From Haliotis rubra (taxonomy: Eukaryota): a stretch of 64,000 nucleotides of DNA. Shown here piece by piece: positions 7,012 to 56,410 of the stretch; positions within the stretch are counted from its first letter, which is position 1; the number at the start of each line of letters is the position of its first letter. Where the stretch lies: positions 62,001-126,000 of the forward strand of contig NW_025767707.1 of NCBI RefSeq assembly GCF_003918875.1, given 5' to 3'. The notes under the pieces were generated by a model. It was not told the DNA's origin. It did not search any database and was given only the letters and a program-made list of their open reading frames with translations. The position numbers and the translations under genes were made by a program.

Positions 7012-9222
7012 GTTAACGCCTATTGGCGTACTGTCCCTAATCGCTGGAAAGATCTTGAGTGTGTCTGATCTCGCTGGGATGGTTCATCACATAGGGATGT
7101 TCTTAGCCACATGCATCGCCGGTCTTTTTGTGCAAACTGTTGTAGTAATACCACTGATATACCTCATTCTGACACGGAAGAACCCTTTTAAGGTGACGTT
7201 GGGAGTAGTGCAGGCTCTTCTGACAGCTCTGGGCACCAATTCAAGGTTTGCAATCAATTATTGAATATAGCGATACGTAACGGAGTTCTATGAATAGATG
7301 AATATACAATGTATTGTGTTTACGGTCCGGTGATCAAAGTATTGTAAATATTTAAAGGCACAATTTCACACATTTTCGACAATATTTTGGCCTATAATAA
7401 ATGTATTGGGGGCATATGTACTCACTTTAGCTTCCTATTGATGCAATAAAAGACTTATTATCCCATACAACTTGGTTGAAATCGATAATTGAAACTTCGA
7501 GGCAAAGAACTTAAAACAGAGAACACTTGCCATTATAAGTTGTTCACTGGTTTCGACGGGGACATGGGCTGATGCACCTTCGATATTTGTTTATGAACAT
7601 AAAGAAACATCGAGGGTACATCAACCCATGGGCCCCGAGGGACCAGTGAACAACGTATTCATCTTCAAAGAGTTTGCAGGGAATGGTAGTGAAGGATCCT
7701 GTTTATATTTGTCAGTGCTGCAACACTTCCGGTTACCATCGACTGCTGTGAGAAGAATCTTAAGATAGACAGAACTATCAGCCGGTTTGTGCTACCTATC
7801 GGTGCTACTGTTAACATGGATGGAGCTGCCATCGTCCAAGTCGTCACTCCAGTTTATATAGCACAGATGAGTGGAGTGCACCTGTCTGTACTTGACGTCT
7901 TGGCTCTTGGGTAAATGCGTTTTTACATACAAATCGTTAGTCTGTTGTTTAACGCCACATTCAACAATATCCCAGCTATATGGCAATAGTCTGTAAATAT
8001 TCGGATCTAGAGCAGACGACCCAGTGATCAACATCACAATCATCGATCTACGCAATTGGGATACAATGACATTTGTCAACCAAGTCAGCAAGCCTAACCA
8101 CCCCATTTACGAGAGCGATTTGGGGAGGGACAGAGATAGTGACGTCACTTTCCAAACGTAGAAATGGAAGCAAATGGGTACTGGTCAATTTTATAATCAA
8201 CGATGACCGTACAACAACAGACCCAATCAGAAGTTGAATGCAGAAGCTGGAAGAAGGATAGATAAAATGGGAAACTTCGCTATCTATAGTAGCCCAAAGT
8301 AAGATCTTGCCCATTGGTTAAAGATCACCAGTGATCATGCAACACATAACAGAATTAAAATCAGATGCGAAATGCAAATTGCTGAGAAAACTATTTATGA
8401 TATCATTTCAGCGTGGCTGCCACCCTCACCAGCATTGGGACCGCTGGTATACCTAATGCTGCTATAGTAACCATCATGGTTTTTCTAGCCAATATGGGAC
8501 TGCCAACGAACGAAATCTCCATCATTTTTGCCATGGATTGGTTTCTGTGAGTATTTGCAGCTTAAAATGACACACCCATAGTCATACTGTTTGATGTTGA
8601 TTGTTTTATGTCTTCAATGTCTATTGAATACATGCCAAATATTTCTATCATACATTTATACAGTATTCGATGATTATGTTTGAAATGCTTCTCAAGATGA
8701 CTGCACATGCTTTCATTCAATATAATCTACGAACGTCGATACCTTGTGCATTCCTGTATGTGTCCAGACGTTTATTTTGTATTGGATTCCAGACTCATTC
8801 TTGTTGTAAAAATCGAACATAGATGAAATCTGACAGGTGCTATTTGTGTAATTCAAACCTTGAGTACGTTAAGCTACAAGACAATAGGTTACAATTTGTT
8901 TATGACAAACACTGTCAACTAAACACCACCTGTAAACACAAAATAGTCTGAAATATCGTATCCTTTTTTACCTGCATAATTCACTCCATAAACAAATAGC
9001 CTGTTTGTGGCCTAACGTGTTTCATTCTTGTGGACGGTGACATTTTCCATATTCTGGTGTTTCAGCGGGCGAATGAGGACTATCACTAATGTGAATGGAG
9101 ACTGTATGGGCGCCGCTATTCTCCAGCACTTCTTCCACCAGGATGGCAGCAATGGTTCGGGATATGATAATAACCCACTACCACAGGACGAGATAGAGAT
9201 GGAGGAAGCTCTGTCACTTTAA
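7012..9222 (+). CDS. SLC1A-family (EAAT/ASCT-like) transporter copy A, last four coding exons: 7012-7245, 7716-7910, 8412-8546, 9066-9222
   Basis: GT-AG exons encode [24 protein letters not shown] (HP1), [10 protein letters not shown] (TM7), SIGTAGIP (HP2) and [16 protein letters not shown] (TM8). The three internal exon sizes 234/195/135 equal those of copy C. The upstream exons lie outside the window. Confidence 0.93.
7539..7655. mobile_element. Short palindromic MITE-like hairpin
   Basis: GTTGTTCACTGGT...ACCAGTGAACAAC forms a near-perfect ~55-bp fold-back. It is absent from the matching intron of copy C. Confidence 0.65.
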
Positions 9223-9925: not shown

Positions 9926-10157
9926 CAGACCCGTGAAGATCCGAGTTAGAATTGATCTTCAGTAACCCATGCTTGTCGTAAGAGGCGGCTTACGGGACCG
10001 GGTGGTCAGGCTCGCTGACTTGTTTGTCATTGTATCCCAATTGCGTAGATCGATGCTCATGCTTTTGATCACTGGATTGTCTGGTCCAGACTCGATTATG
10101 TACACACTGCCGCTGGTACATTGCTGAGTTCGGCGTTAAACAACAAACAAACAAACC
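9926..10157 (+). mobile_element. SINE-like family B (~230 bp, (CAAA)n tail); other copies at ~7938-8105(-), 13689-13880, 25720-25960, 28145-28370, 34091-34300, 43348-43590, 45330-45520(-), 45900-46126(-), 51064-51270, 58943-59152
   Basis: A recurrent sequence GACCCGTGAAGATCCGGGTTAGAATTGATCTTCAG...GACTCGATTATTTACAGACCGCCGCCATATAGCTGGAATATTGCTGAGTGCGGCGTTAAACAACAAAC occurs in both orientations. Confidence 0.85.
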
Positions 10158-12678: not shown

Positions 12679-14188
12679 CACCTAAACTATTAATATGTCC
12701 GCAGAGGTTGCAGTTTTGACTCACGTTTATAAAAAACAGACATTTGCTTGACATGCAAGATTCCTTAAAACGTATTTCTCGAAAATCAAAAATGTCAGGC
12801 TCCCCTTTTGCTGGGGAAAATGGTTGTCTTGAAGCAGAGGCCCAAAACTGTCCTTTCACTGAGAAAAACAACTTGAAATCATATAATTGTGGTTTTCTGT
12901 TCTAGATACTTGGGGCGGTTTGCAAACTTGAACACGTGAAAGGAAAATACTTTTTTATCAAATATAATTTATTCAAAATTGTGAAACGAATGAAAAGAAA
13001 GCACGAGGCGTGTGAATCTTGCAAAACGTCCATAATAGTCTTTAGTCAATGCCAGAAGATTTTTCAAAACACATCGCTCATGAATGTAAAGCTACAATGC
13101 GTTTTTGCAAGCTTGAGGTAATATTACATTTGGGATTACACTTTCTCAATCCCAAACATAGCATATGTAATACACTGCATCGTGATTAAATAGAAACAAT
13201 GAGGCCATTCGATGCATGACATCAGTAATATCCAAGACGATGATTGTATTACTATAAGTGACAAACACACACGTATAACAATATAGGAAACTCTCATAAC
13301 GATTCTTACGCAACGTTTCGATGATACTTCAACTATACCTAGGGTATTCTACTTTTCAAGATGGCGTTAAAGACCTGTTTGAAGGCCAACATCCTGCTCA
13401 TCCTAACCGTCATCTCTGCAATCATCGGCGTGACCATCGGGTTGCTATTTCGTCAGCTGCATCTCTCCCCGGAAACCATCCTTCTCATCAGTCTCCCAGG
13501 GGATACATTCATGAGGATGTGGAACATGCTTGTACTTCCGCTGATTGTTGCAAGCATGATCACAGGTAGAGTGAATTCTGTTTTACCCGGACGTTATTCT
13601 CTGGTTTGTTTTAGACCGCCATCGTATACCAGAAGTACAGTAGTCTGCCTCACAGTCCCTGAACTGCATTATTTTCCCTTGTGCTCACAGACCCGTGAAG
13701 ATCCGGGTTAGAATTGGTATTCAGCAACCAATACTTGTCGTAAGAGGCGACTAACAGGGTCGTGTGGTCAGACTCACTGACTCCGTATCCCAATGGCGTA
13801 GATCGATGCTCATGCTGTTCATCAATGGATTGTCTGGACCAGACTTGATTGCCAGACCGCTGCCATATAGCTGGAAGATAAGTAAACCAAGACTTTAAAC
13901 AATTGTGTCATACAGGAGTGTTAGAGGTGAGACCATTATTTTTGGATTCACAATTCCATCAATAATCAAATCTCGTCACGATCAAAAGCATTCATTGTAC
14001 AGTCGGTTATGTACATAACCTCATGGGGTCACTACACGTATTATATATTAGAATATTAATTCTATTTCGAGCCCTAATATTAAGTATCGTAGAACCGATA
14101 TTTATTGTAACCCGCGCATTAAATATGGGTTCTTTCCCTCGACATTTTTAAACGCTTGCTAAGATATACTGTCACTGAGATAGGCTTG

Positions 14189-15374: not shown

Positions 15375-16010
15375 CACAAACTGGGTTTCACATGTTCGAA
15401 TGCTTCTATTTACTACAGGTTTCTCCTATGTCTGGTTATCCCAAGATTGTGGTGATGTAAATCACTTCATGTTTGAGATCAAACAACGCTGTATAGATAT
15501 TAATATACAACACTGGAATAGTAAAATAAAAAACTCATCATTTCTTGTAAATTATATTACATTTAACCTGAACTGTATATTTCCTGTGGCGCATTAAACA
15601 AAGATCTCATGCAAATGTTGATCAAATTTCGATGCCAATCACATAACTTGAATATACAAAAACAACGTTTTTCAAAGATAATTGACCCATATAAAGAATT
15701 AGTTTGTAACAAATGTACTTTAAACGTGCTTGAAGACGAATATCATTTGTTGCTAATATGTCCATTTTATAACCGATGCAGATCCCAATGTATTCCAGCC
15801 TATTTCTACAGCCCACCTTCAATTGTCAAATTCCGAGCCCTTATGAAGATTCAGAGTGTCACTGTTCTTAAAGGAATATGTATATTCCTGAAGCAAAACC
15901 TACGTTAAAATAATTGTTTTATGAATTATATTTCAACTCTACACACCATGACAATGTTGTATTACCTGTTGTACTCTTGGCCACATGGCCTTCAATTCTG
16001 AATAAAGCGA
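15375..16010 (+). mobile_element. 5'-truncated non-LTR retrotransposon fragment, related to the element at 30071-32894
   Basis: It encodes NWVSHVRMLLFTTGFSYVW and KFRCQSHNL...CNKC...EDEYHLLLICPFY. Its 3' end GTACTCTTGGCCACATGGCC...CTGAATAAA matches 32831-32866. Confidence 0.85.
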
Positions 16011-17298
16011 TCAACACATCGGAGATTCTATAATCGGGGATCCAGAAAGCTCCAGGAGTATGGATCATAGAAGAATCCTTGGAGGCGTAAGTATAACTAT
16101 GTGTAAAATCTGCATAACGTATAAAATCTCTAATTACGAACTCCAAATACGGTTTCAACAATATGTGACCTGGTTGTAGGTTGCAGTCGTTAATGTTATG
16201 GACTATGTTGTGTAACACATGTAACTGGTATTCTGAAGACTGTCATGTAGATGTCGTAATTCCCTGTGATGATTTCCTTTTTTCAGTAATCTGTTTCCAG
16301 ACAATATTGTTAGGGCTGCAATTCAAAGTTCACACACGGTATACGTCAAGGAAGAGTTCGTCAAGAGGGAATCTCCTGATGAATATGTGCTCCAGAATGT
16401 AACCAACTCAACGTTTCTGGTAGAATCTGATGGGAGAAATACTACAGAGGAAGAAACCCCATCTGGACAGCTAGGACTGTCACCAGACCCGGATTTAATG
16501 TTCTGGGTATGCGAAGGCTGGGAGCCTAAGTTTATCAACTGCAACTGTTTGTGTTTCTAGTAAGATTGGTTAAGAAATTATGTTGATGAAGAAGATTCGA
16601 ATTCCTGACTGTAAACAGTGTCTGAGTATAGAACTTTGAAAAAACGTGGAATCCAGCTTAGCAGCATGAACAACATATGATTCATTACATAAACGGGTTT
16701 ATTATTAGGTTCTCTGACGGTTACGCGTCATGGGATTCTTGCCAACCAGGCGATTTGGTTGCCAGTAGAACATCACATGAGAGTACATTGCAAAAAGACA
16801 CAAATGACTGTGTGTAAAGTAACAGTTACTTTCAATGTTTTTGCATTATAAGTAGTATGACACTGGGGCTCCGGCCGCAATTGCCATGGAAGGTTAATTA
16901 GAATGTAATTCTAGCCAAGCAGCTAATGAAAAAATGGTGTTAAATGTTTTATGAGCATGTTGGTTTTCCATTTGTAAGTCTTAATTTTTGTGTGGAAAAG
17001 TTAAGGCTTCCATAAGGATGAGCCCGATCTCATAAGAGATTACCATAAATTGGTTTCTAGATATTAACATATTTTAGTTCTGTGTGCAGCAGCGTGTAAA
17101 CTCACAGGTCAACCCGACCCTAAACAGCCAGGATTCAATTAGTCGTGGGGAATCGATACGAGTTGACAGCAGCCTGGCGACAGCTGCCAATCCCAAAGTC
17201 ACATGGTGTTTTGAACAAGCCATATTGTCGCCATTTGGGATCTACTGGAGAGCGCGTGTAGACCGGGAGGTAGGTGTTTGACTATTGTTTCCATAAAT

Positions 17299-17553
17299 AT
17301 GACGGATAATGGTGAACCAAGTTATTGGAATGAAGATCAGAAAGCGGTTTTACGATCTTATCGAGAATTTTACCAAGAAATGATATTATTTATTGACAAG
17401 CTTGAACAGGAGGGCCCCGATGGGAAACTTATGCCAGAAAAACCAAAGGGAGATTTAAAATCACTCCTTGAGAGTCATGAAAAAAGATTCGAAATACTAA
17501 CAGGTCAAGAACTTCATGCCTATTTAACCAAGAATTTAATTACAACGAAGTAA
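17299..17553 (+). CDS. Small hypothetical protein (84 aa from the ATG at 17299) of the element, bracketed by 50-bp inverted repeats
   Basis: The ORF MTDNGEPSYW...NLITTK is uninterrupted, charged and helical-looking. I recognise no family. Confidence 0.5.
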   Translation: MTDNGEPSYWNEDQKAVLRSYREFYQEMILFIDKLEQEGPDGKLMPEKPKGDLKSLLESHEKRFEILTGQELHAYLTKNLITTK

Positions 17554-17671
17554 GTTTGTTTAGTCTCATTATCCTACATCAACCGTTCACTCAATATCCG
17601 TCATATTTATGGAAACAATAGTCAAACACCTACCTTCTGGTCTAAACGCTATCAGGCGTTGATAGGTTGGG

Positions 17672-17878
17672 CAGCCATGTGGTTTGGCCTAGCAACGCCA
17701 AGCAGACTTGGCCCGCTGTTACTAAGCTCGGTGGCTATCTTGTTTAACTTAGCAACGGCGAGCAGACTTGGCCCGCCGTTACTAAGCTCGGTGGCCATCT
17801 TGTTTCACTTAGCAACGGCGAACAGACTTGGCTCACCGTTCCTAAGCTCGGTGGCCATCCTGTTTAACTTAGCAACAC
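17672..17878. repeat. 60-bp tandem repeat, ~3.5 copies, inside the element
   Basis: The unit is AGCAGACTTGGCCCGCCGTTACTAAGCTCGGTGGCCATCTTGTTTAACTTAGCAACGGCG. Confidence 0.9.
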
Positions 17879-17995
17879 ATTCAAGTTCAAGTCCCAATCA
17901 AACCCAATCCCCTACCTACATGCATACATATATTAAGTATACTCTTCAAATCAAGGACGCATCCCATGATGCTCACACAACCCATCCACCATTTT

Positions 17996-18278
17996 TTAAA
18001 TGTAGCCGTAATATTGAGCGATGACTTTATGGATGGGATCTGTCATAAATTCCTCGAAGTAGGCTAAGGAGTAGGGAGAGTACGGTGCTGTGCGATCTCG
18101 GGTTTTGAGGCTATAATCGACCAAAGTATCCATGAGACGTTGTAACCGTTCGGTACCCACGAGACCTAAACTATCATACAGGGTGGTGAATTTCCCTCGA
18201 CTTGTTACTCGACGTAGGGGTGAGTAAATATTGAGCCCATTGACGTCCACCTAAACACGCCTGAACAACCGTCCACAT
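17996..18278 (-). CDS. Small hypothetical protein of the element, probably frameshifted near its start
   Basis: There is an 84-aa open frame (DVNGLNIYSPLRR...QYYGYI), with an upstream ATG at 18278 preceded by TATATATC. Confidence 0.35.
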
Positions 18279-18309
18279 GATATATACATATACGAAATAT
18301 ACAAATTTT

Positions 18310-19180
18310 AAATAAGGTTGTAATACCGTGTCACAGGGAACAATTTGTAATTCCTCTCGGACGAATCCTCTCGGCGGTCCGTCTTTTAAGTAGTACAAAT
18401 TCGGTTCATCGTCTTTGATGTCCACTCGGTTGATGTAGTACGTTTTATAGACCATATTGGGTCTGTCGCACGTTTTGTGCTGCCCCCTCGAGTTCACCCG
18501 GCTGATACAAATACCTCACGCTGATCCGACTCGATAGTGTTTTTCAAAGTTTTACCCCTGGACGGTGGTGGTGCAGCCGATTCAGCCGTGACGGATTTCA
18601 TTTTAATGGCTTCAACGGGTCTCTTGTCGGGAGTCTGGTGACTTCATTGTTGATGGCCGCCACCACTCGAGGCAAGCGTTCAACCCATTCGGTCGATCGT
18701 TTTTTCGGGCGTCACCATTTCTAGGGCATACTGGTGCCCGAACAAACGCTCGGCCAAGGTGCGATTGAACCTTTCGACGATAGCTTGGCTACGGTGAGCT
18801 CCGGCCACACCTTGTCGAACTTGGACGTCGTGCTTGGCCAGCAGCTGTTACACGGCGCCCATAAACTCACGTCCGGGATCGACTTGTAATTCGGCAGGCC
18901 AGGTCAAGCGACTGCGTTTGTATATACGTTCCAGTGCCTTGACCACTTGGTTCGAATCTTTGGTCGTCAAGGGCTCGGCCTCCCTGTAGCGACTGGCGAC
19001 ATCGACGACAGTCAGAGCATACTAGTACTTGTAGGTTTTGCGTCTCACCCTGTCGTGTGGGAGAAACAGGAGGTCGGCTTGATGGAATCGATTGGGTGTT
19101 GATACATCAAATTTTCGTCTCGGGGTGTATCGGGGCGCTGGCAGGTAGATTTGCTAGAGAGCTTGTTTTTCAAGCCAATC
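18310..19180 (-). pseudogene. Retroviral-like (rve/DDE) integrase of Maverick/Polinton type, with stops and frameshifts; missed by the ORF track
   Basis: Manual minus-strand translation gives QIYLPAPRY...PNRFHQADLLFLPHD...YALTVVDVASRY...LQVDPGREFMG...SQAIVERFNRTLAERLF...PNLYYLKDGPPRGFVREELQIVP. The D-D-E spacing is typical of this family. Confidence 0.9.
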
Positions 19181-20101
19181 GATGGTCACTTCCACTTTGG
19201 TGATCTCGGGGTTCCAATATTTTTCGTTAATCCTTTCTAACGGTGAAAATTCTTCCACTGGCAGGATAAAAATGCCCTTCATCGATCGAGCGGGTAAGAT
19301 CAGATTGATATTCCACAGCGTATCGCTTTTATACGCGACGATCTTCCGATGCCGCAGTACGCGATTGTACAAGATGGCTAGCATTCCCGAATACTGCTGC
19401 AAATTTGTCGAGCCAATTCCGGATTCGTGACGTTGTCGAACTCCAACAAAATATTGTCGATGGTATAGCTGCCCTCGCCATTTTCTACGAAAACAACCTG
19501 TCTATAATCGTTTAACATCAGTTCGTATTCCAGTCTATCTCCCAGCGGCTTGGTAAAACAGCAAGTGACCCTCAAGTAGTTCGAAGTCGAGCGGAATGCA
19601 AAATCAGTTCCTGAACGCCTCTGCTATCGCCTTATGCTTCTTTGCTGTAGCGGCGAGATCAGCTTGCTCAAAATCATACCCCACGCGCAACCGAATCGAC
19701 AGACAATCAGCTGGACAAATGCCTCGGCATTTCATGCTTTCCTGTTCGCTCACAGTTCTCTAGAGGTCTGTGTAAGTGAAATACACATCGCTGTCGTCGA
19801 TGCTGAGGATTTCGTTCCCGCTGATTTTAATGATTTTTTTTTTTTTCACGATGGCTCGACCCAGGTTCGCTACGATATCTCTTTTGTCATTTTTGGATTC
19901 CAAACTGTTCTGAAAAGACAGGCGAGCCGTCCTGGGGACGATGACGTCATTGTCGCCCTGGTTGGGGAATGGCACCAACAGCGTTTGGTTTTGTCGCCGT
20001 GCTCAGGTTGTTGGTCATGGTCACGGATTGACGCGACGGCTTTCACCCCAGGGTTCTCTCAATCGTTGGAAAGGATCTAGTATTCTTCCGTATTGCGACA
20101 T
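19181..20101 (-). pseudogene. Probable major capsid protein (double jelly-roll), frameshifted and C-terminally deleted
   Basis: Fragments MSQYGRILDPF..., NDVIVPRTARLSF, NLGRAIVKK...KISGNEILSIDD, LGDRLEYEL...YTIDNILLEFDNV and NLILPARSMKGIFIL...KVEVTI show the alternating beta-strand pattern and order expected of Polinton-like MCPs. This is recognition from memory. Confidence 0.65.
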
Positions 20102-20147
20102 TATTTATATTAAAAGTATATAATATTTGTTAAATAAATATAATATA

Positions 20148-21309
20148 ATGGCCAAAGGTGGTGAAGATATTCCAATGGACGATTTGGGGGGTGAGAGTGC
20201 CCCATTGTTCGATGATGATGACGCAAGTAGAAACATAAGCGATAACCTCTTAAAACGAGCATGGACGATTATTACGTTGTCCTAGGGAAAAGGGAAACTA
20301 TCGCCCCTCTTCGCGATTAAGTTTGAAAATTGATGATCGAGGGATACTACAGCTGAAAGAGGCTTCGGACGTCGATCTCATGCATTCCCATGCGACTAAA
20401 CCTCTCGTCTTGTCCACGCTGGCTGGTCGCCAAGATGCCGGCTCTATCCACGACAAATTAAATATAACCGGCTATCGACAAATATTAGCGGGAAGTTTGG
20501 CAAGGCTTTACGAGAAGCGGACGCCGAGCTCGATGTCTTGGCAAGTGCAGCCAGTCGAGATGATTTGAGAGACGTTCCACAACGCGCTCAAGAAGCCTCG
20601 AACGACATTGAAAAAATATTGAATGCTTACTGGAACAAACCCCTGCCAGGTTTAGAATTTACCATAAGGGAACTGCGAGGCCTTGAGAACCACTTGTGGA
20701 GAACTTGTGAACAACATAGCCAAACTGAAAGAAGTCGAAGATCATATCGCTTGCAATAAAAGAAAACTAAACCAGGCACATGACGACGAAGTCCTAAAAA
20801 ACATCATCAAGAAACGATTGCACAACCTGGAAGAGGGAAGATTGAGCCGATTGGAAGTGGCGTCCTCCTTCCGAGAAACGCTTCGAACCCAAATCAGCCA
20901 CATACGTGAAACCATCGACCGAGTCCTCAACGAAGACACCACGTTAGCCGAAAGGCTTAAAACATTATTCAGAGAACAAGGCATCACCATCGCCAGCATT
21001 CTGATGGCTTTGGCCTTCATCATATCGACCCTGGTCGTCTCACTGACAGGCAGCGGTGGAGGTGGAAGCATGCCACCACCAACCCCAGGCCCATCAGGTG
21101 GCCATGGCAGCGACTTCAGAGGCTGGATCAAACAACATTTGAAATCACTCAGCCAAGCTGGGAAAACTGCCGAAGCGCTGTCTGGCATCTTGTGCAGCAT
21201 CGTTTCATGGTTGCTTGGCTTCTGGTCGAAAACGGTCACGTGGTTTGGTCAAAACCTGTGGGCATTCGTCGTGGCCATGGCCGGTCTGGTGTATGTCGCT
21301 GCTAAATAA
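20148..21309 (+). pseudogene. Coiled-coil plus transmembrane/amphipathic protein of the element (frameshifted)
   Basis: An acidic N-terminus precedes a long heptad region, a hydrophobic segment (ITIASILMALAFIISTLVVSL), a Gly/Pro hinge, Trp-rich amphipathic helices and a C-terminal hydrophobic tail. Confidence 0.7.
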
Positions 21310-22467
21310 TTTTTAAACCAAATTAGGCACAGTCCAACCGCAATTCCACCGACCATGAGCACTGTTTTACGATCGATGTGTGGCTGATTTTCGACAATGG
21401 CACGTACAGATGGGTGTGGTGCGGGTTGAACACTGGGCTCTGGTGATGTTGGTGACGTCACAATCCCCGTTTCACCGGTATTCGTGCGTGGCGCAACATG
21501 ACTCACGTTGATATCGGCCTTGACAGCCAACTTTTGATCGCTGGTCGCGCTGACGATTTCGTTATTGTAGCCCACCGCTTCGTGGATCCTCAGTTGCATG
21601 TCGCTCGGAGCCATGTACAACCCCATGCCAAACATGTAGTCGACTTTCGACCGGGGATTTTACAACGTGTCTTGGTAACGCTTGATGGCAAATCCACCGG
21701 TCTGGCAATAGCATCCTCGACGTTGGCCACGAATTGTTTCTGCGTGTCGTAAGCCGTTACCTTACCGATGATACTGGAGGAAAGCGTTTGCGCCTGCGCA
21801 CCTAGCACGGCCCACACGTACGTTCGAATCGAATCGTTCAACCATATGGTACCCGCGCGAGAAAACACCTTTGATGTTTTAGATATCATTTTCATCCAGG
21901 CAGTGGCCGCTCCAGGGTCGGTTTGTTTGATGTACGAAACATGACTATGGTCGTTCGTCGTGGGCCCCGTAAACGTGTGGTACCCGGGTATGTACTCACC
22001 ACCCATATAAGTGATTCTAAACGTTCTGTATTTATTAAAATAAGTGTAGATTTTACCAAGAACGTGGTTCACACTAGGAAGGCGAAAATCTTTATTGGTG
22101 GGAATCATAAATTCCCCGTAAATACGTTCGTACGCACGCCGATCGAACGGGTTATTGTACATGCTCCACGCTGTATCTTGGGGGAGAGGTGCACCTATTG
22201 TCTTCAAAATTCGTCTCGTCTGATAATAATCGTGAAACAAGGTGCCTGACTCAGCTTCTCCATGCCACAGTCGAGTGTCACACCCGATCCCGTCGTCGCA
22301 CACCACGCGGCGAAATTGAGTTGGTTTTGCCAAAACTGCATCGGGTTTTGCTTCCACCAACTGAGCTTTACTGACGGTCACGATATAGTTTTTAAAAATA
22401 TCGATAAAATTCGTTTTAAAACTCGTTCCATCCGCATCCACCACGATTTCCATTTTCGTTAGCACAT
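21310..22467 (-). pseudogene. Unknown ~380-aa element protein with a Pro/Thr stalk and C-terminal membrane anchor (frameshifted)
   Basis: ORFs 21590-22465 and 21249-21635 join across a frameshift. The product ends TSPTSPEPSVQPAP...TVLMVGGIAVGLCLIWF. Confidence 0.65.
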
Positions 22468-22512
22468 CACTTATATTGAAATTATTATTATTACATTATA
22501 TATATTGTCAAT

Positions 22513-23167
22513 ATGTACGCGACACTCCCGGGGAATCACGAATGGTGAATCTATTCAACTGCTGCCTTGATCGATAATACATCAGGACGACTCGATCGAA
22601 GTCGCTCTCACCTATTACCCGCGATGGTTGAATATCACTAAAGATATAGGGAACAACAGGTTATTCATCGATGGAAATCGCCACGATTTGTCTGACGGTT
22701 ATTACAGCGTTTGGATGCTGAACGATGAAATTTTCAAACCCATGGGAGCCTATCTCAAACTCATCGAGTCAAATGGCACGCTGACGTTAACTGCGGGGGA
22801 AAAACCCATCCGACTCGGTAGGCACTTGGCGAGAACTCTCGGATTGTTGTCGAACGACATATAACCCCGACAGACCGTCACAGGTTCGAAATTACCGAGC
22901 CTCGTGGTCTATTACGAACTGTTCATTTATCTCAATCGGGTAAGCACGACCGATAATATTCAAGGCGAACGCCCTTGCACACTGCTAAGAGCCATGCCAG
23001 TGTAAATGGAAAAATGCAACGATGGTCGAACGGAATCGTTTTCGACCTTGCAGTACAAAAAGTTAACTCAGGGCATGACGACAGAACGCAAGCTATAAGT
23101 TTTAGATATAAATTATAATCCCGTACATATAGGATACCTCAGCGTCATGCTGCACGTAAAGCAATGA
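22513..23167 (+). pseudogene. Probable minor capsid (penton, single jelly-roll) protein with stops and frameshifts
   Basis: Motifs EVAL, LSDGYYSV, LARTLG, LFIYLNRV, TLLRAMPV, FSTLQYKKL and a terminal SVMLHVK follow the Polinton penton pattern. Its stop overlaps the next ATG (ATGA). Confidence 0.7.
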
Positions 23168-23965
23168 CTCAAGCTTCTGGGCCAGGAACATCCATGCGTG
23201 TGAGAAAATGCACCAATATAGCGATCTCCGACCTCGGGGACACGCGCGGATTCGACGAGCCCGGAATCGACGGTAAACTGTACGCCTTGCAACTGAAAAA
23301 CCACATTTATAAACGCGTCGAAGTGCCCTCCACCGGATCCGGAGGTAGCAGCGTCTGAAGCGATGTCATCGATACCGAAGGAGCGGTCAGCAACACGCGG
23401 TTCGACCTCATCCGCAACGACAACATATGGGCGATATCCACAGCCTTCGGCGGCAAGCTATTCGACCTGAACGACGTCAAGACCACGGTCGTCGCCAGAA
23501 ACACGCAGTACACCCTCGTCTTTACCGACGACAATAAATGGATGTTCGTACCATCTCAAATCAACTGGAATCTCAACATCACGTTCCTATGTTTTTACGG
23601 AAAACAAAGACCATCTGACGACAGTCGTGAATAACAGAACGCTGCTCGTGGCTTACATCCCGACGCAAAGATGCAGTGTGATTATCAGCGCACTGTCGCG
23701 TAAAATAGCCCACACGCAGAACGTAAGTTTGCAGATGGTGTCGGAATTCGACGGCGTGGTCAACACACGACAACAACAATACCACGTTTGCTTCATTTAT
23801 GTGCTGGTGAATGTGAATGCCTACACCAGTCAGCAGGGAGTCATCGTGACCGTGGAAGACACGATATCGCTCACTAAAATCTTTCTGCCGGAAAACATAC
23901 AGCTCATGTGTTTGAAGTGCACGTCCACGAAATTATCCAAAAACCAATTAAAAACTATTTCGTAA
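23164..23965 (+). pseudogene. Spike/fibre-like protein 1 of the element (disrupted)
   Basis: An N-terminal module ISDLGDTRGFDEPGIDGKLYALQL and a G/S linker precede beta-rich sequence. It lies directly after the penton-like gene, and the function is inferred. Confidence 0.4.
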
Positions 23966-23975
23966 CATATATACA

Positions 23976-24600
23976 ATGCACCACCGACACAATGTCACAC
24001 TCAGTGATCTCGGGGATACGGAGGGATTCAATCTGCCCGGCGAGGATAATAACTTATACGTCCTACACTTACAATGCGTGTACGAGCGAGTGTCACTGAC
24101 AGATTTCAAAGAGCCCAACTGGTTGATCAACATGACCCTCAAATCACCCCACATATCTTTCAAAAATAATGGTTACGTCTGCAAACTTACGAACAACGGA
24201 ATCCTGTTTGTCTTTCCCTCCAGAGTTTGATATACAAGTTTTACGAATTCCAGGTCACACGGGCAACATGTTAGCATCAAACGACTTGGCTTCATATTTA
24301 TACGTACACGCACCCGATTACCAACGGGATTTTTTCGATTCAAATTTGGCTATCAAATTACACACCACGTTCGTAATAGAAGTCTATCTCGCAGACGCTC
24401 GTAGGAGGTCAGAACGACAACTTTTGGATGGGTTGACAATACACTGGTCCGACAGACACAATAAGGTCATAAGACCGGGATCGGCACCCTTAGTAAGTCT
24501 TAGTGTCTCGACTATTTACGTGTACGATAATCTAAACCTTATCAGCCTCAAATACAGAGATCGAATACTGACAGATAACCAATTAAATATTACTTTCTAA
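23976..24600 (+). pseudogene. Spike/fibre-like protein 2 of the element (frameshifted)
   Basis: It begins with the paralogous module LSDLGDTEGFNLPGEDNNLYVLHL and has a different, beta-rich C-terminal part. Confidence 0.4.
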
Positions 24601-24621
24601 ACTTATATACATATATTTTCA

Positions 24622-25193
24622 AGATCCGATTGTATCCGGCCGTGGACGAAGTGGCTCAAACGCTCGAAACTGTGGACGGATTGCGTTTGCACCAAATCGG
24701 TGAGATCAAAGGTTCTCTGGAACGAGAATGCGATGTGTGGATCGGATTACACAAAAAATACCATAGGGCCACCAATGCTCTGGACTTTTTGGATGCTGCC
24801 CTGATGGTAGCCAGTCTGGGACTTGGCGCGGCTGGCGTCGGCTTATTATCGACCATTATAGCCGCCCCCGTCGTCCTCGGGTTAGCAGCCGGGGTATCCG
24901 TTAAGTTCATTTCACGTCGGTTTCATTGAAGCATGACGAAATTAGAATTCTAGCCAAAGCGAAGTTAAACACGATCTCTGATCACGTGTCCAAAGCTCTT
25001 ACCGATTCTAAAATATCTGAGGAAGAGTTTCGTCTGGTGATGTCTGAAATTGCAAAGTACCACCGGACGAAAAGAGAGAGTCTAGGAAACCTCTGACATC
25101 AGCGAAGAGGAGAAAAAACAATTAATCGAAGAAGGCAGACAACAAATTATTCAAACCTTCCTTACCAAGAACAACGATCTCATCAAATATTAA
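24622..25193 (+). pseudogene. Hydrophobic-hairpin membrane protein of a type common in animal Mavericks/adintoviruses
   Basis: The sequence runs LRLHQIGEIK...KKYHR, a Gly/Ala-rich double hydrophobic segment, then across a frameshift KHDEIRILAKAKLNTISDHVSKALTDSKISEEEFRLVMSE. Confidence 0.65.
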
Positions 25194-26774
25194 CGTTAAA
25201 CTGTTTTATAGATATCAACAGAACAGATAAGCTATAACCCCCATCGGGCTCATCCTTATGGAAGCCTTCCACACACAAATTAAGACTTACAGATGGAAAA
25301 CCAACATGCGCACAAAACATTTAACACCATTTTTTCATTAGCTGCTGGGCTGGAATTACATTCTAATTAACCTTCCATGGCAATTGCGGCCGGAGCCCTA
25401 GTGTCAAACTACTTTGAAAAAAACGCGGCAATTGCCTTTCCCATAATCAGAAAAAAAATTATCTTATCAATACAATCGCACCGTTCTAACTATAGCATGA
25501 GGATCTAGCATCTGCAAATCTTTAATGGAATTGTGTTGTTCTGTTCCACAGGGATGTTGGTGTATTGTGCAGTATTTGGGGCAGTGCTTGGTAAACTAGG
25601 CCATAAAGGCCGGATCATCTTCAAGTTCTTTGAGGAACTGAATGAGATCACGATGGGCATTGTACAACTCGTTATGTGGTAAGTAATCCAGGACACCCCC
25701 TGCTGTTTCATACATAGATGAGACCCGCGAAGATCCGGGTTAGAATTGATCTTCAGTAACCCAGGCTTGTCGTAAGATACGACTAACGGGATTGGGCGGT
25801 CAGACTCGCCGACTTGGTTGACACGTGTCATAGTATCCCAGTTTCGCAGATTAATGCTCATGCTGTTAATCACTGGATTGACAGGTCCAGACTCGATTAT
25901 TTACAGACCCTTGTCACAGAGCTGAAATATTGCTGAGTGCGACGTTATACAACAAACAAACTCATACAGAAATGAATGGAGTATGTTTTAAACATATCAA
26001 GATTTTGTCTTTACTTATAATCAGCATCTCATGCATGTTCCATGAATATATTGTCATTGACCGTCAAAGTTGCGATCTATGGCTTCATGCTACAATATCC
26101 TGTTAATTATAGAATTTCAGCGAAACACTTTAAATGCTGATAAATAATGCACATGAACACTCTTTCAGCTAACTGCAGGAAACTGGTTACATTGCCCGGG
26201 TTTGAACCCTACATGGTGAAGACCTGTTAGGGTGTCCGCCGCAATGATTGTGCTGTGCATTATAAATGACTTTTGAAATTACTCGTCTACTCACGCAATA
26301 GCTGCAATAGTGCTCAGTGACCTACATATCAAGTAAATAATTCACGTACCAGTGTCTAAACTGACTCAAGCGACGTACGTATGGTTATGCATTTCACTTG
26401 TAACCATTATATATGTAACGATAATTTCATTATAGGCGTTGTAAATATACATTTCATTTACCCCGGCAAATATGTGTGTGAGCTAAATGATTCAAGAATG
26501 TAAAACAGCACTGAGCATGAACACTTCAATTATGTAATTCAATTGAACAATTCAATCATCAAAAATATGTCAAATGTTTACAATATGTTATACAGCTAAA
26601 GAGGTGGTAGGGTAGCCTTTTGGTTCAGGTGTTCGAAAGTGCCAGGGTTCAATTCTCCACATGGGAAGCCCATTTCTGATGTCCCCCGCCGTGATATTGC
26701 AGGGATATTGCTAAAGACGACATGAAGCCCAACTCGATCGATTAGAAAGTACATAGGAAGGGATGATGACAAAG

Positions 26775-28139: not shown

Positions 28140-30070
28140 TTCTACCCGTGAAGATCCAGGTTAGAACTGGTTTTCAGCAACCCATGCTTGTCATAAGAGG
28201 CGAGTAACGGGATCGCGTGGTCAGGATCACTGACTTGGTTGGCACTCGTCATCGTATACCTATTGTGTAGATCGATGCTCATGAAGTTGATCACTGGGTT
28301 GTCTGGTCAAGACTCGATGATTTACAGACCGCCGCTGGAATATTGCGACAAACAACAAACAAACAGACAAACCTGCCATTATAATTTGTACATTCCCATC
28401 CCGAGGCATGCGTGTAAATAGTACCAAATGATGTGGAAAATGTCAGCATTTACATGAACAATAAGTTAACACTGTTCGTAACTTCATGAAATGGGCTGTG
28501 TGCCTGTGGCTCCTTGTGGTAATCCGAACTTATATCGAATATTATAGGCTTAGCTGTGAGCATATGTATTTATGCTGTACGGCTCTCAGGATTTAACCAC
28601 ATTTGCATTCTCGACACGTCTGCTTATTCCTATGTGACACCATCATGCTTATTTATGCTGTCTGGGTTCAATCACTGTTCCATGTTGGACACACCCTCTG
28701 TTGGTAGTTATTGTAATCAGTCGATGCTGAGTGAACCAAAGGCTAAGGACATCATTTTAAAACTGAACATTTATTTTTAAATCGTGTATATTGTTTGAAG
28801 CATTTTTCAGTTGGAACGACAAATGTTCCCGTTCAAAATGGCCTGTTGTTTATGGTTTCGAGAGCTGAATACCATTCAGAAGATCGTTTGATGGAACCAT
28901 ATGTTCTATTGTTGGAGAGACAGACACACTGAAGTCCACATACATACAAACAGGTGTTTTACGGGATACATAGAGAATATAAAACGATGTTCCGTGTAAT
29001 ACCATATTTATGAAACGAGTGAATGGTTAGGTCTCTAACGAGCAAAAGCGAGTTAGATACCAATACCATTCACGAAATCTTATAGCCCCAGCTGTAAACA
29101 TATATATCAATGCTGCACGGACAAACTCATCATGGTTCATGCACTCGGGATTTTATCGCTTTTGCATTCTCGGCACATCTCTTTGTTCCTCTGTAACATC
29201 ATCATACTAATTTATGCTATCCGGGTTTGACCACTGTAGCATTCTGGACACACCCGTTGTTGGTTATCATTAGAAATCAGTCCAAGCTGAGTAAACCAAA
29301 AGGTAAGGACATCTGTTTTTAGAACTGCACACTTATTTTTTAATCGCGTGTATTGTTTGAAGAATGTTTCAGTTGGAACGACAAAATACTCCCCTTAAAA
29401 ATGGCCTGTTTTGTGGTTACCAGAGAAGAAATCAAATCAAAAGATCGTTTGATGGAACTAAATGTTCCTATTGTTGGAGAGACAGACACACTGAAGACAA
29501 GTATGCACATACATACAAACAGGGTTATTTCGGGATACAAAATGGTAGCAATGCCGTGTGCTATTCATATGGATACTCCTTGTTTGGGCACACTGGTAGT
29601 GCCTAAACCACCTGAAAACTATACCATATCCGCAGAGGTTGCAATTTTGCCCCACGAAAGAAACTTTCCTAAACGATATTTTCAGTTGAAAATTGATGTC
29701 TTGAAGCAGAAACCCAAAGCTGTCCTTTCCCTGAACAAAACTACTTGAAATCATATAATTGTTGGTTTTGTTTTATTTGGCAGTTACAGCGGTTTTACGG
29801 GATACATAGAGAACACTAAACGATGTCCCATGTAATACCATATTTATGAAACGAGTGAATAGTTTGGTCTATAACGAGCGAAAGAGAGTTAGATACCAAT
29901 ATCATTCACGATTCATAAATATGGTATTACACGGGACACCGTTAGTATTTTATTTATAACTCATTCAACAATAGCAAAATAATGTCTCAGAATTCAACTT
30001 ACAAAATACTCCGTCACAACAGGGGTCACGCGTATGAGTACATTTCATTTATAATTGTCAACATTAGTCT
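28140..30070 (+). repeat. Intergenic spacer duplicated from ~9926-11060, present here as a close copy plus an older diverged copy
   Basis: 28370-29075 is near-identical to 10155-10880. 29200-29540 and 29790-30070 repeat the same blocks with more divergence. Confidence 0.85.
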
Positions 30071-33763: not shown

Positions 33764-36700
33764 ATGGCGTTAAAGACCTGTTTGAAGGCCAACATCCTGC
33801 TCATCCTTACCGTCATCTCTGCAGTCATGGGCGTGACCATCGGGTTGCTTTTTCGTCAGCTTCATCTCTCCCCGGACACCATCCTACTCATCAGTCTCCC
33901 TGGGGATATAGTCATGAGGATGTTGAACATGCTCATACTTCCGCTGATTGTTGCAAGCATGATCACAGGTACAGCAGAATCTGTTTTAACCGGACGTTAT
34001 TCTCTGCTTTGTTTAAGACCGCCATCTTAACCAGAAGTACAGTACTCTGCCTCACAGTCCCTGAACTGCATTACTTTCCCTTGTGCTTACAGACCCGTGA
34101 AAATCCGGGTTAGAATTGGTCTTCAGCAACTGTTATTGTCATCCAGGCGATCGGGTGGTCTGGCTCGCTGACTGGGTCGACATATGTCATCATGTCCCAA
34201 TTGTGTACACTGATGCTCATGCTGGATTGTCTGGTCCAGACTCGATCACAGACCGCAGACATATAGCTTGAATATTGCTGAGTGCGGCATTAAACAACAA
34301 CCATCCATGCCTTCTTCTTAGCCTTTTCTGCAATTCTAAGCTCTAAATGAGGCAAGTCCAGATTTGCTCAAGTACATGATCTTCCATCTCTCTTGGGATC
34401 CTTTTCAATTTAATAGGATTTGTTTGTTTTTATGAAAATTATATATTTTGAACGACTGGTGTCATCACTGGTGATGTTGTACTGTATTATAACATTTGGT
34501 TTTGGATACATTTATACGTTTTGGTAATTTAGGTAACTAATATACACGGAAATTACGTAAACCAAATTTTCAAGCAAATGCATCGTGCAATAGTACTGAC
34601 GGCGAGACTACTACTTTTGGATTCACAATTCCATCAATAATCAAATCTCGTCACGATTAATAGCTTTCATTAACAGTCCTTTATGTACAAAACCCCATGA
34701 AGTCACTGCACGTATTATACATTAGAATATTAATTCTAGTTCTAGCCTAAATATTAATTAACGTATTCATTACAACCCGCGCAAGTTATTGGTTCTTTAC
34801 ATCGATAGTTGTAAGAACTTGCAAAGAAACACTGTTACTGAGATAGGCCCGTTGTTCATTTTATTATTCCTTTTAGAGTTACTCTGTGTTTTAACAGGAA
34901 TTGCTATCAAGAACAGAATGTCATCAGGAAAGATGGGTCTGTTCTCCATTTGATTATTGCCTTTAGAGTTACTCTATGTTTTAACAGGAATCGCTAACAC
35001 GGGCAGCACGTCATCAGGAAAGATAGGTCTGTTCTTAGTGATTATTCCATTTGACGTTACTTTATGTTTTAACAGGAATTGCCAACATGGACAGCAACTC
35101 ATCGGGAAAGATGGGTCTGTTCACTATGGCCTACTATATTTCAACAACCGTCATTGCAATCTGTATTGGCTTTGCTCTGGTGTTCATTATCAAGCCAGGA
35201 TTACGTGACACGCCGACGTCTTCAGGCACGCAGTCTGAAGAGTTCCATGCTCCTTCGGCAGTTGACATGATTCTTGATCTCATCAAGTGAGTGATGACAG
35301 TTATAATATACGTATAAACTATCTGACCTTGCCTTGTTTTCGACTGACAGCCCTAATGTCTCCTTTGTACATTTGTCCATGCTGTTGATTTCTCAGGTAC
35401 TGATGTGCCTTTGCATGTGTTTGTGATGAGTGCCATCGATGGGACAGTATGCAGCACAATTTTGTCCCCAAACTGGAACTGATTATTCTCTAGCTTTGAC
35501 TTTCTATATTTTGATCATGGAAATATTGTCGCTTATAATACTGAAAACTGGGTTAAGCGTACATCTGCACTTGCAATGAAAGGAGTTAATTGAGTTTATC
35601 ACAGCCCGGAGTTGCACAGTCAAGGTTGTACTTTACTGAGAAAGTGTAATACCAAATATACCATATATTACATTTGACCACTTTCTAAAATGGCATTATG
35701 TATTTTCATAGCTTTCGGCCGTGGGAGCCGTGCCAATTAACACTTATCAGAGGGATACACAAAGTCCGCAGTCTATACTACCAGTTGTCCAACTTCCATT
35801 TTTGTGTAAGCCGCGGTGGCTAAGTGGTCTGGGTGTCTGACTTTCTGTGCTTGCGATTAGGTGCCTGACTCTGAGGGTGTGGGTTCGAATCCCGGATGGG
35901 ACTCAACCCCCCCAAAATACTAGAATCTGTACTTTACTGAGAAAGTGTAATCCCAAATATAACATATGTTACATTTGACCACTTTTAAAATGGCATTGTG
36001 TATTTTCAGAGCTTTCGGCCGTGGGAGCCGTGCCAAATTAACATTTATCAGAGGGGTACACAAAGTCAGCAGTCCAGACTACCAGTTGTCCAACTTCCAT
36101 TTTTGTGTAAGCCGCGGTGGCTGAGTGGTCTGGGCGTCTTAAATTCTTTGCTCGCGATTAGGTGCCTGACTCTGAGGGTGTGGGTTCGAATCCCGGATGG
36201 GACTCAACCCAAAAAGTACTAGAATCTGTACTTTACTGAGAAAGTGTAATCCCAAATATAGCATATGTTACATTTGACCACTTTGTACCCTTATGGGTTT
36301 TTTAAAAATTATCCAGGCTATCAACAGCCATTCCATGTATGGCACCCATGAAGGGCCAACTCCTCGTGGTGGGTGCTGGGTAACGCTAAGCGCCCTTCAA
36401 CCCCCCGTTGTGGACCCGGGGGTATATTTGGTCCACCAACCTGTTGGCCGTGGGTTGCGCCCCTGTGTCGGTGGAGGACGGGAGTCTGGTGGTTGAGGGC
36501 ACTGGGTCCAGGAACAGTGTTCCTTTGCCCAACACATCACTTCGCCCCTTACTTCACCTAGACGGGTGGTTGAATGGGCCCGGTTCAACCAATCGGCAGG
36601 TCACGTCATGCCCTGTGCATTGTATTTGAAATTGTACAAATTTGATTGATATTAATAATCCTGATAAAGGGCATTGTTCAACTTACTTCACTAAATTTAT

Positions 36701-52517: not shown

Positions 52518-53112
52518 GTCTACTGTCAATAATATTTAAAATGTGTTTGCATTACATTTAAAAACAGAGCAATCACATCCCTCGATACTCTTAAATATCC
52601 AAGACTATACAACATGCATTGTGGACCCTTTTGAGTCTCTATTTGTTTTTAAACAATGTGTCTTTGCTTAAGTATCCAACGCGTATATTTCGCTACAATA
52701 ATTAGAGGTGAACGTGTCATATGGCTACAGTTGATTCGTAAATGGACTATGAGGGGTGTTTGGGGAAGCACTTGGTTGCAAACGGGTTTTTTATCAGCGT
52801 CCAGACATTATAATGTTTCTGCATTTTGTTCACACGTATTATCATCCAAGTACTGTTTGTACTGCATTGGACGGGTTGTTTTGTCTCTAGGCTGTCCTAC
52901 TGCCCCACTGACCTCTTCCTCTACCCAATAACTACGAATAGAACCCACATGCCTGTATTTGATTCTTCGTGACCAGAGATAATGAAGACATGTTCGTTAT
53001 TATTCTTGACACGAAGGTTTATGTATGTAGCCATAGAAATATGTTTTTAAAAAATTAAATTTTAAAAAGAACATACCGTGAAAATCTGGATGAGAAGTGA
53101 TTCTCAGCAACC

Positions 53113-56100: not shown

Positions 56101-56410
56101 TTACGTATCACACAATTATCAACTACTCCCCAACACATTTATGCAGCATTCACTATTAAGTATCACACAATTATCAACTACTCCCCAACACATTTATGCA
56201 GTATTCACTATTAAGCATCACACAATTATCAACTACTCCCCAACACATTTATGCAGCATTTACTATTAAGCATCAACAATTATCAACTACTCCCCAACAC
56301 ATTATGCAGCATTTACTATTAAGTATCACAAAAAGTATCAACTATTTGCCAGTTTATTTATATAACATTTACTATTAAGCATCACAAAATGATCAGCTAC
56401 TCCCCGGCTT
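53113..56410. repeat. 55-bp minisatellite/satellite array, ~60 copies
   Basis: The unit is CATTTATGCAGCATTCACTATTAAGCATCACACAATTATCAACTACTCCCCAACA. Confidence 0.98.

Follow-up and report, generated by a model that had tools for sequence, protein, structure and literature searches.

The window analysed here, a stretch of 64,000 bp of Haliotis rubra contig NW_025767707.1 (positions 62,001 to 126,000), carries in a transporter intron an 8.6-kb virus-like element bounded by terminal inverted repeats (TIRs). The locus raises the question of whether a Maverick/Polinton-like element without a polymerase is the remnant of a larger one or a helper-dependent member with a layout of its own. The analysis indicated that the element is very probably a single decayed Maverick/Polinton insertion of ~15 kb, from which ~7 kb of the middle was lost in one deletion.

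The preliminary description had reported TIRs of 178 and 171 bp with an AGTAGT start, an empty paralogous site at ~43045 and a location within a transporter intron, all of which could be confirmed. The ends read AGTAGT...ACTACT, and the TIR pair was 92% identical, with 8 substitutions in 171 aligned bases and one 7-bp indel. Both flanks of the element aligned at 77-79% identity with the element-free paralogous intron (left, 42702-43022; right, 43035-44079), and the host exon downstream of the insertion matched Pfam SDF (PF00375, E 1e-6). G+C content was 44-53% across 18-25 kb, compared to 33-42% in most flanking bins. A degenerate target duplication, TTATA/TTGAA, which was absent from the preliminary description, was also observed; its right copy (25414-25418) matched the left one in three of five positions, which is one of the weak points of the reconstruction.

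Features of the element and of its insertion site (positions in the window)
Feature	Position	Strand	Remarks
Likely left copy of degenerate 5-bp target duplication	16846-16850	+	TTATA; 5-bp length from target duplications of the family
Left TIR	16851-17028	+	178 bp, begins AGTAGT
Subterminal region	17029-17995		Partly common to siblings C2109, C2121 and C2370
Short ORF in subterminal region	17215-17553		
65-bp internal inverted repeat in subterminal region	17254-17317 / 17585-17649		
Three ~60-bp tandem units in subterminal region	17674-17876		
rve integrase pseudogene	18315-19177	-	Residues 42-320 of 324-aa sibling; N-terminus deleted
Deletion junction	19178-19179		Complete relatives carry 6.8-7.3 kb here
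Double jelly-roll major capsid pseudogene	19181-20092	-	Residues 2-303 of 419; C-terminal ~115 aa deleted
Pseudogene of ~384-aa coiled-coil protein	20163-21321	+	Two predicted membrane segments
Pseudogene of conserved ~416-aa soluble protein	21467-22468	-	
Penton (single jelly-roll minor capsid) pseudogene	22504-23161	+	3 stops, 3 frame breaks
One or two genes	23164-23964	+	Match sibling ORFs of 149 and 278 aa
~224-aa gene	23982-24585	+	N-terminal motif common to gene(s) at 23164-23964
Pseudogene of ~206-aa helical protein	24630-25184	+	One strong predicted membrane segment
Right TIR	25243-25413	-	171 bp, terminates ACTACT
Host exon 3' of insertion	25551-25679	+	SLC1/SDF-type dicarboxylate or amino-acid symporter
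Empty site, paralogous intron of tandem gene copy	43022-43050	+	

Nine protein alignments covered 18315-25184, and the ~9 tightly packed genes on both strands noted earlier were recovered as eight or nine broken ones. Every alignment contained at least one lesion, giving a total of 12 stops and 26 frame breaks, including 3 stops and 5 frame breaks in the integrase and 2 stops and 5 frame breaks in the major capsid gene. Pfam analysis of 22 ORF fragments of the window revealed nothing above the cut-off because the fragments were too short. As previously stated, pPolB, packaging ATPase, and protease could not be detected within the element, and the window copy is not autonomous in the sense of possessing intact pPolB, integrase, and capsid genes. 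Among the other products, the ~384-aa protein had no ESM Atlas match. The ~416-aa protein had 1612 cluster representatives at E ≤ 0.001 and no Pfam assignment; its family profile matched no PDB structure, and its ESM Atlas search returned sub-threshold PolA matches only.

The same genome contained two complete relatives with TIRs at both ends (C2625 and C2145, 15.0 kb) and a near-complete one (C163). From one TIR to the other, their genes were integrase, pPolB, small genes, ATPase, major capsid, 384-aa gene, 416-aa gene, penton, and three or four others. The sibling integrase matched rve (PF00665, E 2e-10), and the ATPase encoded directly after the capsid gene matched Pox_A32 (PF04665, E 1e-9), while the sibling pPolB had 34% identity to the PF03175-positive polymerase of a canonical element of the same genome (E ~0). 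Both the pPolB and the ATPase are deleted from the window copy. In a survey of 23 non-allelic loci, of which three were sources of the reference proteins and four consisted of end fragments only, at least 40% of pPolB was retained in 12 and at least 45% of the ATPase in 14. The siblings C1680 and C630, whose TIRs came closest (84-90%), also carried remnants of both genes in the region deleted from the window copy. The suggestion that longer copies be checked for the three missing genes was thus answered for pPolB and ATPase; no protease was detected there either. Perfect 5-bp target duplications flanked five of nine TIR-paired siblings and a 5-bp duplication with one extra terminal triplet a sixth, while two were ambiguous and the ends of one were unresolved; the family mostly makes 5-bp duplications, whereas those of the canonical Mavericks in this genome are 6 bp. 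Taken together, the parent family has the TIRs of Mavericks/Polintons (short-repeat ends with a 5-8 bp target duplication) along with rve integrase, pPolB, capsid, penton, and A32/FtsK ATPase.

Folds were modelled on unbroken sibling proteins with 63-65% identity to the broken window genes. The capsid model received its best match from PBCV-1 (Z 14.1, rmsd 4.5, 294 aligned), followed by the faustovirus and ASFV capsids, and each of its first 14 PDB matches was a viral capsid or scaffold protein of the double jelly-roll type. The sequence profile of the capsid matched no solved structure, and fold comparison alone succeeded. The penton model (pLDDT 83) was closest to a PBCV-1 capsid chain (Z 10.6, rmsd 2.9, 116 aligned) and also matched the mavirus penton (Z 10.5, rmsd 10.3, 214 aligned) and a Sputnik chain; its best viral structure match was a Tetraselmis viridis virus S1 protein (E 1e-10). 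These models support a double jelly-roll capsid and a single jelly-roll penton in the parent family. The claimed Maverick/Polinton identity and the jelly-rolls predicted earlier at 19181-20101 (double) and 22513-23167 (single) are accordingly supported, the jelly-rolls for 19181-20092 and 22504-23161, respectively. The low confidence of the capsid model (pLDDT 57) and the use of siblings for the folds are further weak points.

The boundary of the loss could be placed at a single position. Sibling alignments ended at 19178 and resumed at 19179, with 6,778 bp (C2121), 7,209 bp (C163), and 7,284 bp (C2625) intervening. The missing segment comprises the capsid C-terminus, A32 ATPase, small genes, pPolB, and integrase N-terminus, and the window copy equals the full layout minus everything from integrase residue ~42 to capsid residue ~303. 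No clean microhomology was seen at the junction. The truncation of capsid and integrase and their fusion at one breakpoint had not been part of the preliminary description, which had offered a deletion derivative and a helper-dependent member as alternatives. The former is favoured by the position of the pPolB and ATPase of complete relatives exactly at the junction. The latter, a satellite family spreading as an 8.5-kb unit with its own virion and membrane genes and dependent on full-length Mavericks for polymerase, ATPase, and integrase, is very improbable, even though both TIRs are intact, potential helpers are many (at least 120 capsid matches, many without stops), other TIR-bounded short copies exist (7.2, 8.1, 10.7, and 12.1 kb), and the same genome has a canonical Maverick derivative of 3-5 kb in multiple copies. 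A 23-nt junction pattern (≤2 mismatches) occurred only twice in 1.38 Gb, in the window and in contig C46; since C46 also has the flanks of the window locus, it represents an allele or haplotig. The expected multiple ~8.5-kb copies with a common layout did not appear at any of the 23 non-allelic loci, where each short sibling was deleted differently, although diverged copies of the same layout could be missed since the genome searches scored the best 40 of 5435 candidates. Moreover, the virion module is incomplete, because the deletion runs through the capsid gene and takes ~115 residues from the second jelly-roll, and every gene is broken.

A remnant kept or transcribed by the host with a function, such as a capsid-integrase fusion or a membrane-protein gene, is more doubtful still. 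The frame is continuous from capsid to integrase across the junction (ORF 19154-19501), but one in three joins would be in frame by chance, a stop codon lies 8 codons past the junction, and frame breaks are present upstream. Between the alleles (window and C46, 2.3% diverged within the element), the integrase and capsid stretches had 0 non-synonymous and 6 synonymous differences, a small-number hint of constraint; the overall pN/pS of 0.79 (72 non-synonymous, 26 synonymous) was, however, not different from 1 (Fisher p = 0.33 against neutrality). Least probable of all is an assembly artefact behind the deletion or the entire insertion: indels differ between the assembly and public-run contigs and none of the contig pieces listed bridges the junction, but C46 has the same junction and boundaries despite its divergence, and, in a public run that may be the source of the assembly, one contig spans the right boundary (25369-25552) and another extends 30 bases beyond the left one, both without mismatch. 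Loose ends at 19179, compatible with undeleted siblings, were seen among the public-run pieces listed. Several one- or two-base indels of the window differed from both C46 and the public-run contigs, and part of the frame-break count may therefore be assembly error.

By sequence comparison, the lack of a protease is shared by the whole family and does not stem from the deletion. The tblastn and HMM searches with four canonical proteases of the same genome detected none in the window and none in 13 of 14 family loci, while a protease was found in three of four canonical loci, two of them being query sources. The match in C630 was rejected as a counter-example, as it was traced to a fragment of another family. 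Remaining gaps of the complete copies held small unrelated ORFs only. A genome-wide PF00770 search was silent, which was not counted as evidence because the control and the canonical proteases, scoring below the model cut-off here, were also missed. A very divergent protease may be present among the accessory genes of the family.

For the decayed insertion, the ancestor would have been integrated by the rve integrase of the family, leaving a 5-bp duplication. As the paralogous intron lacks the element and has diverged by ~22%, this insertion would postdate the duplication of the host transporter gene, and it would precede the split of the two assembled alleles. The deletion may have occurred during replication of a parental copy, the short product being integrated in trans, or in place after insertion; the data fit either route. 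Stops and frame breaks would then have gathered at a rate not distinguishable from neutral, and the element is now likely an inert fossil. Contigs under a second organism label matched parts of the element at 93-97%, with none shown bridging a boundary, hinting at an older shared insertion.

The locus itself is an ordinary genomic fossil, degradation and internal deletion being usual among the Mavericks of animal genomes; what interest there is attaches to the parent family, which is abundant and has uncharacterised genes. We tentatively propose, as a possibility somewhat short of even, that the family is a large animal clade of hybrids between polintons and Polinton-like viruses (PLVs), with pPolB-rve replication, a protease-free PLV-type capsid module, a 5-bp integration signature, and ~eight unannotated genes of its own, four of them with predicted membrane segments. 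On this view, the clade would have reached well over a hundred copies in this genome alongside canonical Mavericks, would count more than 1,700 capsid relatives in public data, and may assemble virions that contain a membrane but need no maturation protease; so far it would be known from a small number of cnidarian elements and from bivalve ATPases mentioned in passing. According to published papers, polinton virions have not been observed, and transcripts or particles could reasonably be sought in a protease-free lineage that has many open capsid frames in a single genome. The family could also serve to test whether Polintoviricetes is a class defined by its replicase or by its capsid.

Compared to known systems, the parent family likely belongs, on capsid sequence, to a Polinton-3_NV-type lineage with a polinton replication module and a PLV-like capsid module. 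The element from Nematostella vectensis was published as protease-less with a PLV-like capsid, and Table S1 of that source lists it (16.6 kb) with major capsid protein and ATPase, without protease and with no penton found, and Polinton-N1/N1A/N1B_NV (14-15 kb) with major capsid protein, penton, and ATPase and without protease (PMC4028283). The assignment was made by eye and not by a computed score: the Polinton-3_NV and sibling capsids (412 and 419 aa) have the colinear motifs REP-x-G-x-KA, IVPG, NVGR, QGIS, RSM-x-GIL, RDSEKF-x-NP, and ALW-x-D-x-R (PMC4028283). A penton is present by fold in the parent family, whereas none is given for Polinton-3_NV in Table S1, and the window copy differs from the Nematostella elements in being a deletion remnant, their likeness being known from the capsid motifs and Table S1. 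The view of a poorly characterised invertebrate lineage with unannotated genes was thus fair, but the lineage appears already known from Nematostella. No detailed account of it in molluscs was found in the literature, though Repbase reports, subscription journals, or bioRxiv supplements may contain one.

With canonical Mavericks, Polintons, and adintoviruses (Polintoviricetes), the family has in common pPolB and rve, short-repeat TIR ends, a size of ~15 kb, intronless genes, jelly-roll capsids, and the A32 ATPase (PMC8097293, PMC8502044, bioRxiv 2023.08.22.554363); vertebrate Maverick copies are reported as 96% degraded (PMC8097293). Unlike them, and unlike canonical Group 1/2 Mavericks in particular, it has no detected adenain/Ulp1 protease; its target duplications are mostly 5 bp instead of 6 bp. 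The family capsid matched none of four canonical capsids of the same genome by BLASTP or HMM (best E 0.88), whereas these matched each other at E 1e-18 to 1e-121; by this measure it stands apart from the main Maverick-Polinton sequence cluster, and none of the accessory genes matched canonical ORFs at E<0.01. Among viral contigs, 27 pattern matches to the capsid yielded no confirmed relative. A three-gene morphogenetic module without protease is common to the family and the PLVs (Aquintoviricetes; PgVV/Gezel, Tetraselmis virus), and the literature on PLVs also places capsids of cnidarians, together with ATPases of octocorals, hydrozoans, and bivalves, outside the main Maverick cluster and nearest to PLVs (PMC4642659, PMC10120064, bioRxiv 2026.06.19.733378, 2026.10.13.758929). 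PLVs, however, mostly lack an rve integrase, whereas the parent family has both pPolB and rve and sits in an animal genome.

The element in the transporter intron is very probably a single-locus deletion derivative of a longer Maverick/Polinton family; its Maverick identity, as recognised in the preliminary description, was real and correct. The 1.38-Gb assembly containing the window (G000) yielded 18 matches to the TIR query, at least 108 to the element interior (identity mostly 65–89%), at least 120 to the capsid, many of them stop-free among those listed, and at least 150 to the family ATPase, which among those listed often lay directly after the capsid gene. A total of 24 family loci were fetched. 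One of these, on contig C46, had flanks in common with the window copy and 97% identity over 13 kb, and is an allele or haplotig of the window locus. The 23 non-allelic loci include three sources of reference proteins and four end fragments. The fetched loci included two 15.0-kb elements with TIRs at both ends and a further element that is nearly complete, and the gene order of complete relatives was rve integrase, pPolB, small genes, A32 ATPase, capsid, a 384-aa gene, a 416-aa gene, penton, and three to four further genes. Pfam analysis of the window ORF fragments alone gave no match; therefore, the genes were identified via these relatives. Family products of 384, 416, 278, 224, and 206 aa had no database assignment. 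The membrane module claimed earlier stands at the level of hydrophobicity only, as segments predicted in two window-copy genes and two deleted genes; membrane-active accessory genes are described for adintoviruses (Starrett et al. 2021, PMC8502044). A 5.9-kb element with family TIRs and a perfect 5-bp duplication carried an inverted duplication of an unrelated, unassigned gene as a palindrome-like passenger.

Comparison with relatives revealed that integrase residues 42–320 abut capsid residues 2–303 at 19178/19179 in the window copy. At this point, complete relatives hold 6,778, 7,209, and 7,284 bp, including pPolB and ATPase, as expected of the deletion derivative proposed in the preliminary description. 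Two partly deleted relatives hold 4.2 and 4.4 kb, and the copies on contigs C1680 and C630, which have the closest TIRs, hold polymerase and ATPase remnants. At least 40% of pPolB was kept in 12 of the 23 non-allelic loci and at least 45% of the ATPase in 14. The other proposal, a helper-dependent member with multiple copies of the same layout of about 8.5 kb, found no counterpart, as the window layout occurred at none of the 23 loci. The junction sequence was found at two places only, the window locus and C46, and the other short TIR-bounded copies (1.0, 5.9, 7.2, 8.1, 10.7, and 12.1 kb) each showed a different loss; thus, a spreading satellite was rejected in favor of a one-off deletion. The family is prone to deletions of this sort.

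The element TIRs (178 and 171 bp, 92% mutual identity) start with AGTAGT. The intron is duplicated near 42.7–44.1 kb, and this copy, which lacks the element, aligned to both flanks with 77–79% identity; the exon immediately 3' of the element was an SDF/SLC1 symporter exon. The flanking bases, TTATA and TTGAA, plausibly represent a decayed 5-bp target duplication. The exon near 16273–16560 and its paralog differed in frame; an extra base at 16450 in four of four public runs suggests an assembly indel. Each of the nine gene alignments, of which two overlap each other, contained at least one lesion; stops totaled 12 and frame breaks 26. Some small indels disagreed with C46 and with contigs from public runs, and could be errors of the assembly. 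Divergence of the element between the window and C46 alleles was 2.3%, with a pN/pS of 0.79 (p = 0.33), not distinguishable from neutral; the integrase and capsid stretches showed six synonymous and no non-synonymous differences, too few for a reading. The insertion would postdate the transporter gene duplication (intron divergence approximately 22%) and predate the allele split; the TIR divergence of 4.7% falls between the two.

Folds were predicted from sibling proteins of the same family. The unbroken capsid, which shares 65% identity with the remnant in the window and was modelled at pLDDT 57, gave viral double jelly-roll proteins as its first 14 PDB matches, with PBCV-1 at the top (Z 14.1, rmsd 4.5, 294 aligned), and major capsids at 8–14% identity in the viral library. 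The penton (63% identical to the window gene; pLDDT 83) matched a PBCV-1 capsid chain (Z 10.6, rmsd 2.9, 116 aligned), the mavirus penton (Z 10.5, rmsd 10.3, 214 aligned), and Sputnik and adenovirus chains, with a Tetraselmis virus S1 protein as its best viral-library match. The virus assignment thus survives in these models, which predict double and single jelly-roll folds.

Canonical Mavericks with adenain-like proteases occur in the same genome (six fetched via pPolB matches), and accessory ORFs without annotation, about 120 and 270 aa long, lie beside the integrase in canonical elements here. Searches with the canonical proteases, both by tblastn and with a profile built from them, gave no match in the window and matched one of 14 family loci, and the unannotated gaps of three complete copies held small ORFs only, none with protease features. 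The lone match, a 330-bp piece in C630, was rejected as a family gene, as it is part of a canonical Maverick derivative that is present in multiple copies; the family copy joined to it forms a chimera of two Maverick lineages. This TIR-bounded 3–5 kb derivative (TGTTGT ends, 6-bp duplication; about 18 long matches, 84–91% identity) retains a protease gene, flanked by short fragments of capsid and penton, with 0–3 stops in the protease frames of 10 loci examined. It is the amplified non-autonomous family sought in the preliminary description, from another lineage.

Locations of the element and other features in the window and assembly G000
Feature	Location	Remarks
Element	16851–25413	Bounded by inverted repeats
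SLC1/SDF transporter gene	16000–26700; 41700–44350	Tandemly duplicated
Large tandem array	52950–56300	55-bp unit, ~58 copies, strong GC skew
Interspersed repeat, ~240 bp	7936–8106, 9927–10152, 13689–13879, 25721–25961, 28144–28364, 34091–34303, 43349–43589, 45897–46131, 51060–51227, 58925–59140	Very high copy, at least 10 in window; SINE-like by size and dispersal
Canonical derivative, 3–5 kb	C1301:38539–43483, C868, C2161, C2313, C302, others (L079–L098)	
Canonical Mavericks with accessory ORFs	C855, C366, C2283, C108 (L064–L078)	
Element with passenger, 5.9 kb	C2163 (L003:1873–7800)	
Chimera	C630:53900–54220 (L018–L019)	

Degraded loci make up 96% of vertebrate Mavericks in the survey of Barreat and Katzourakis (2021, PMC8097293), and it is the parent family, not the window copy, that carries the interest. 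The family capsid had no sequence similarity to canonical Maverick capsids of the same genome, and the family pPolB was 34% identical to one canonical polymerase. The target duplication was 5 bp in the family where readable, compared to 6 bp in five of six canonical Mavericks; a range of 5–8 bp is given for Mavericks (bioRxiv 2023.08.22.554363). Database relatives numbered 1,752 for the capsid and 1,089 for the ATPase. Among the few with names, the sources were a sea slug and bacterial bins of bivalve symbionts, suggesting that marine molluscs are among the hosts. PLVs are described as lacking a protease (Yutin et al. 2015, PMC4642659), and Nematostella Polinton-3 and three N1 elements are listed as protease-negative by Krupovic et al. 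(2014, PMC4028283). Compared by eye, the Polinton-3 capsid printed there and the family capsid have a colinear motif run in common. Cnidarian capsids and octocoral, hydrozoan, and bivalve ATPases are placed near PLVs, outside the main Maverick cluster, in the accounts of Bellas et al. (2023, PMC10120064), Bellas and Sommaruga (2026, bioRxiv), and Barth et al. (2026, bioRxiv). Based on the Polinton-3 likeness and this placement, the lineage of the family is likely one already known in outline and thinly described.
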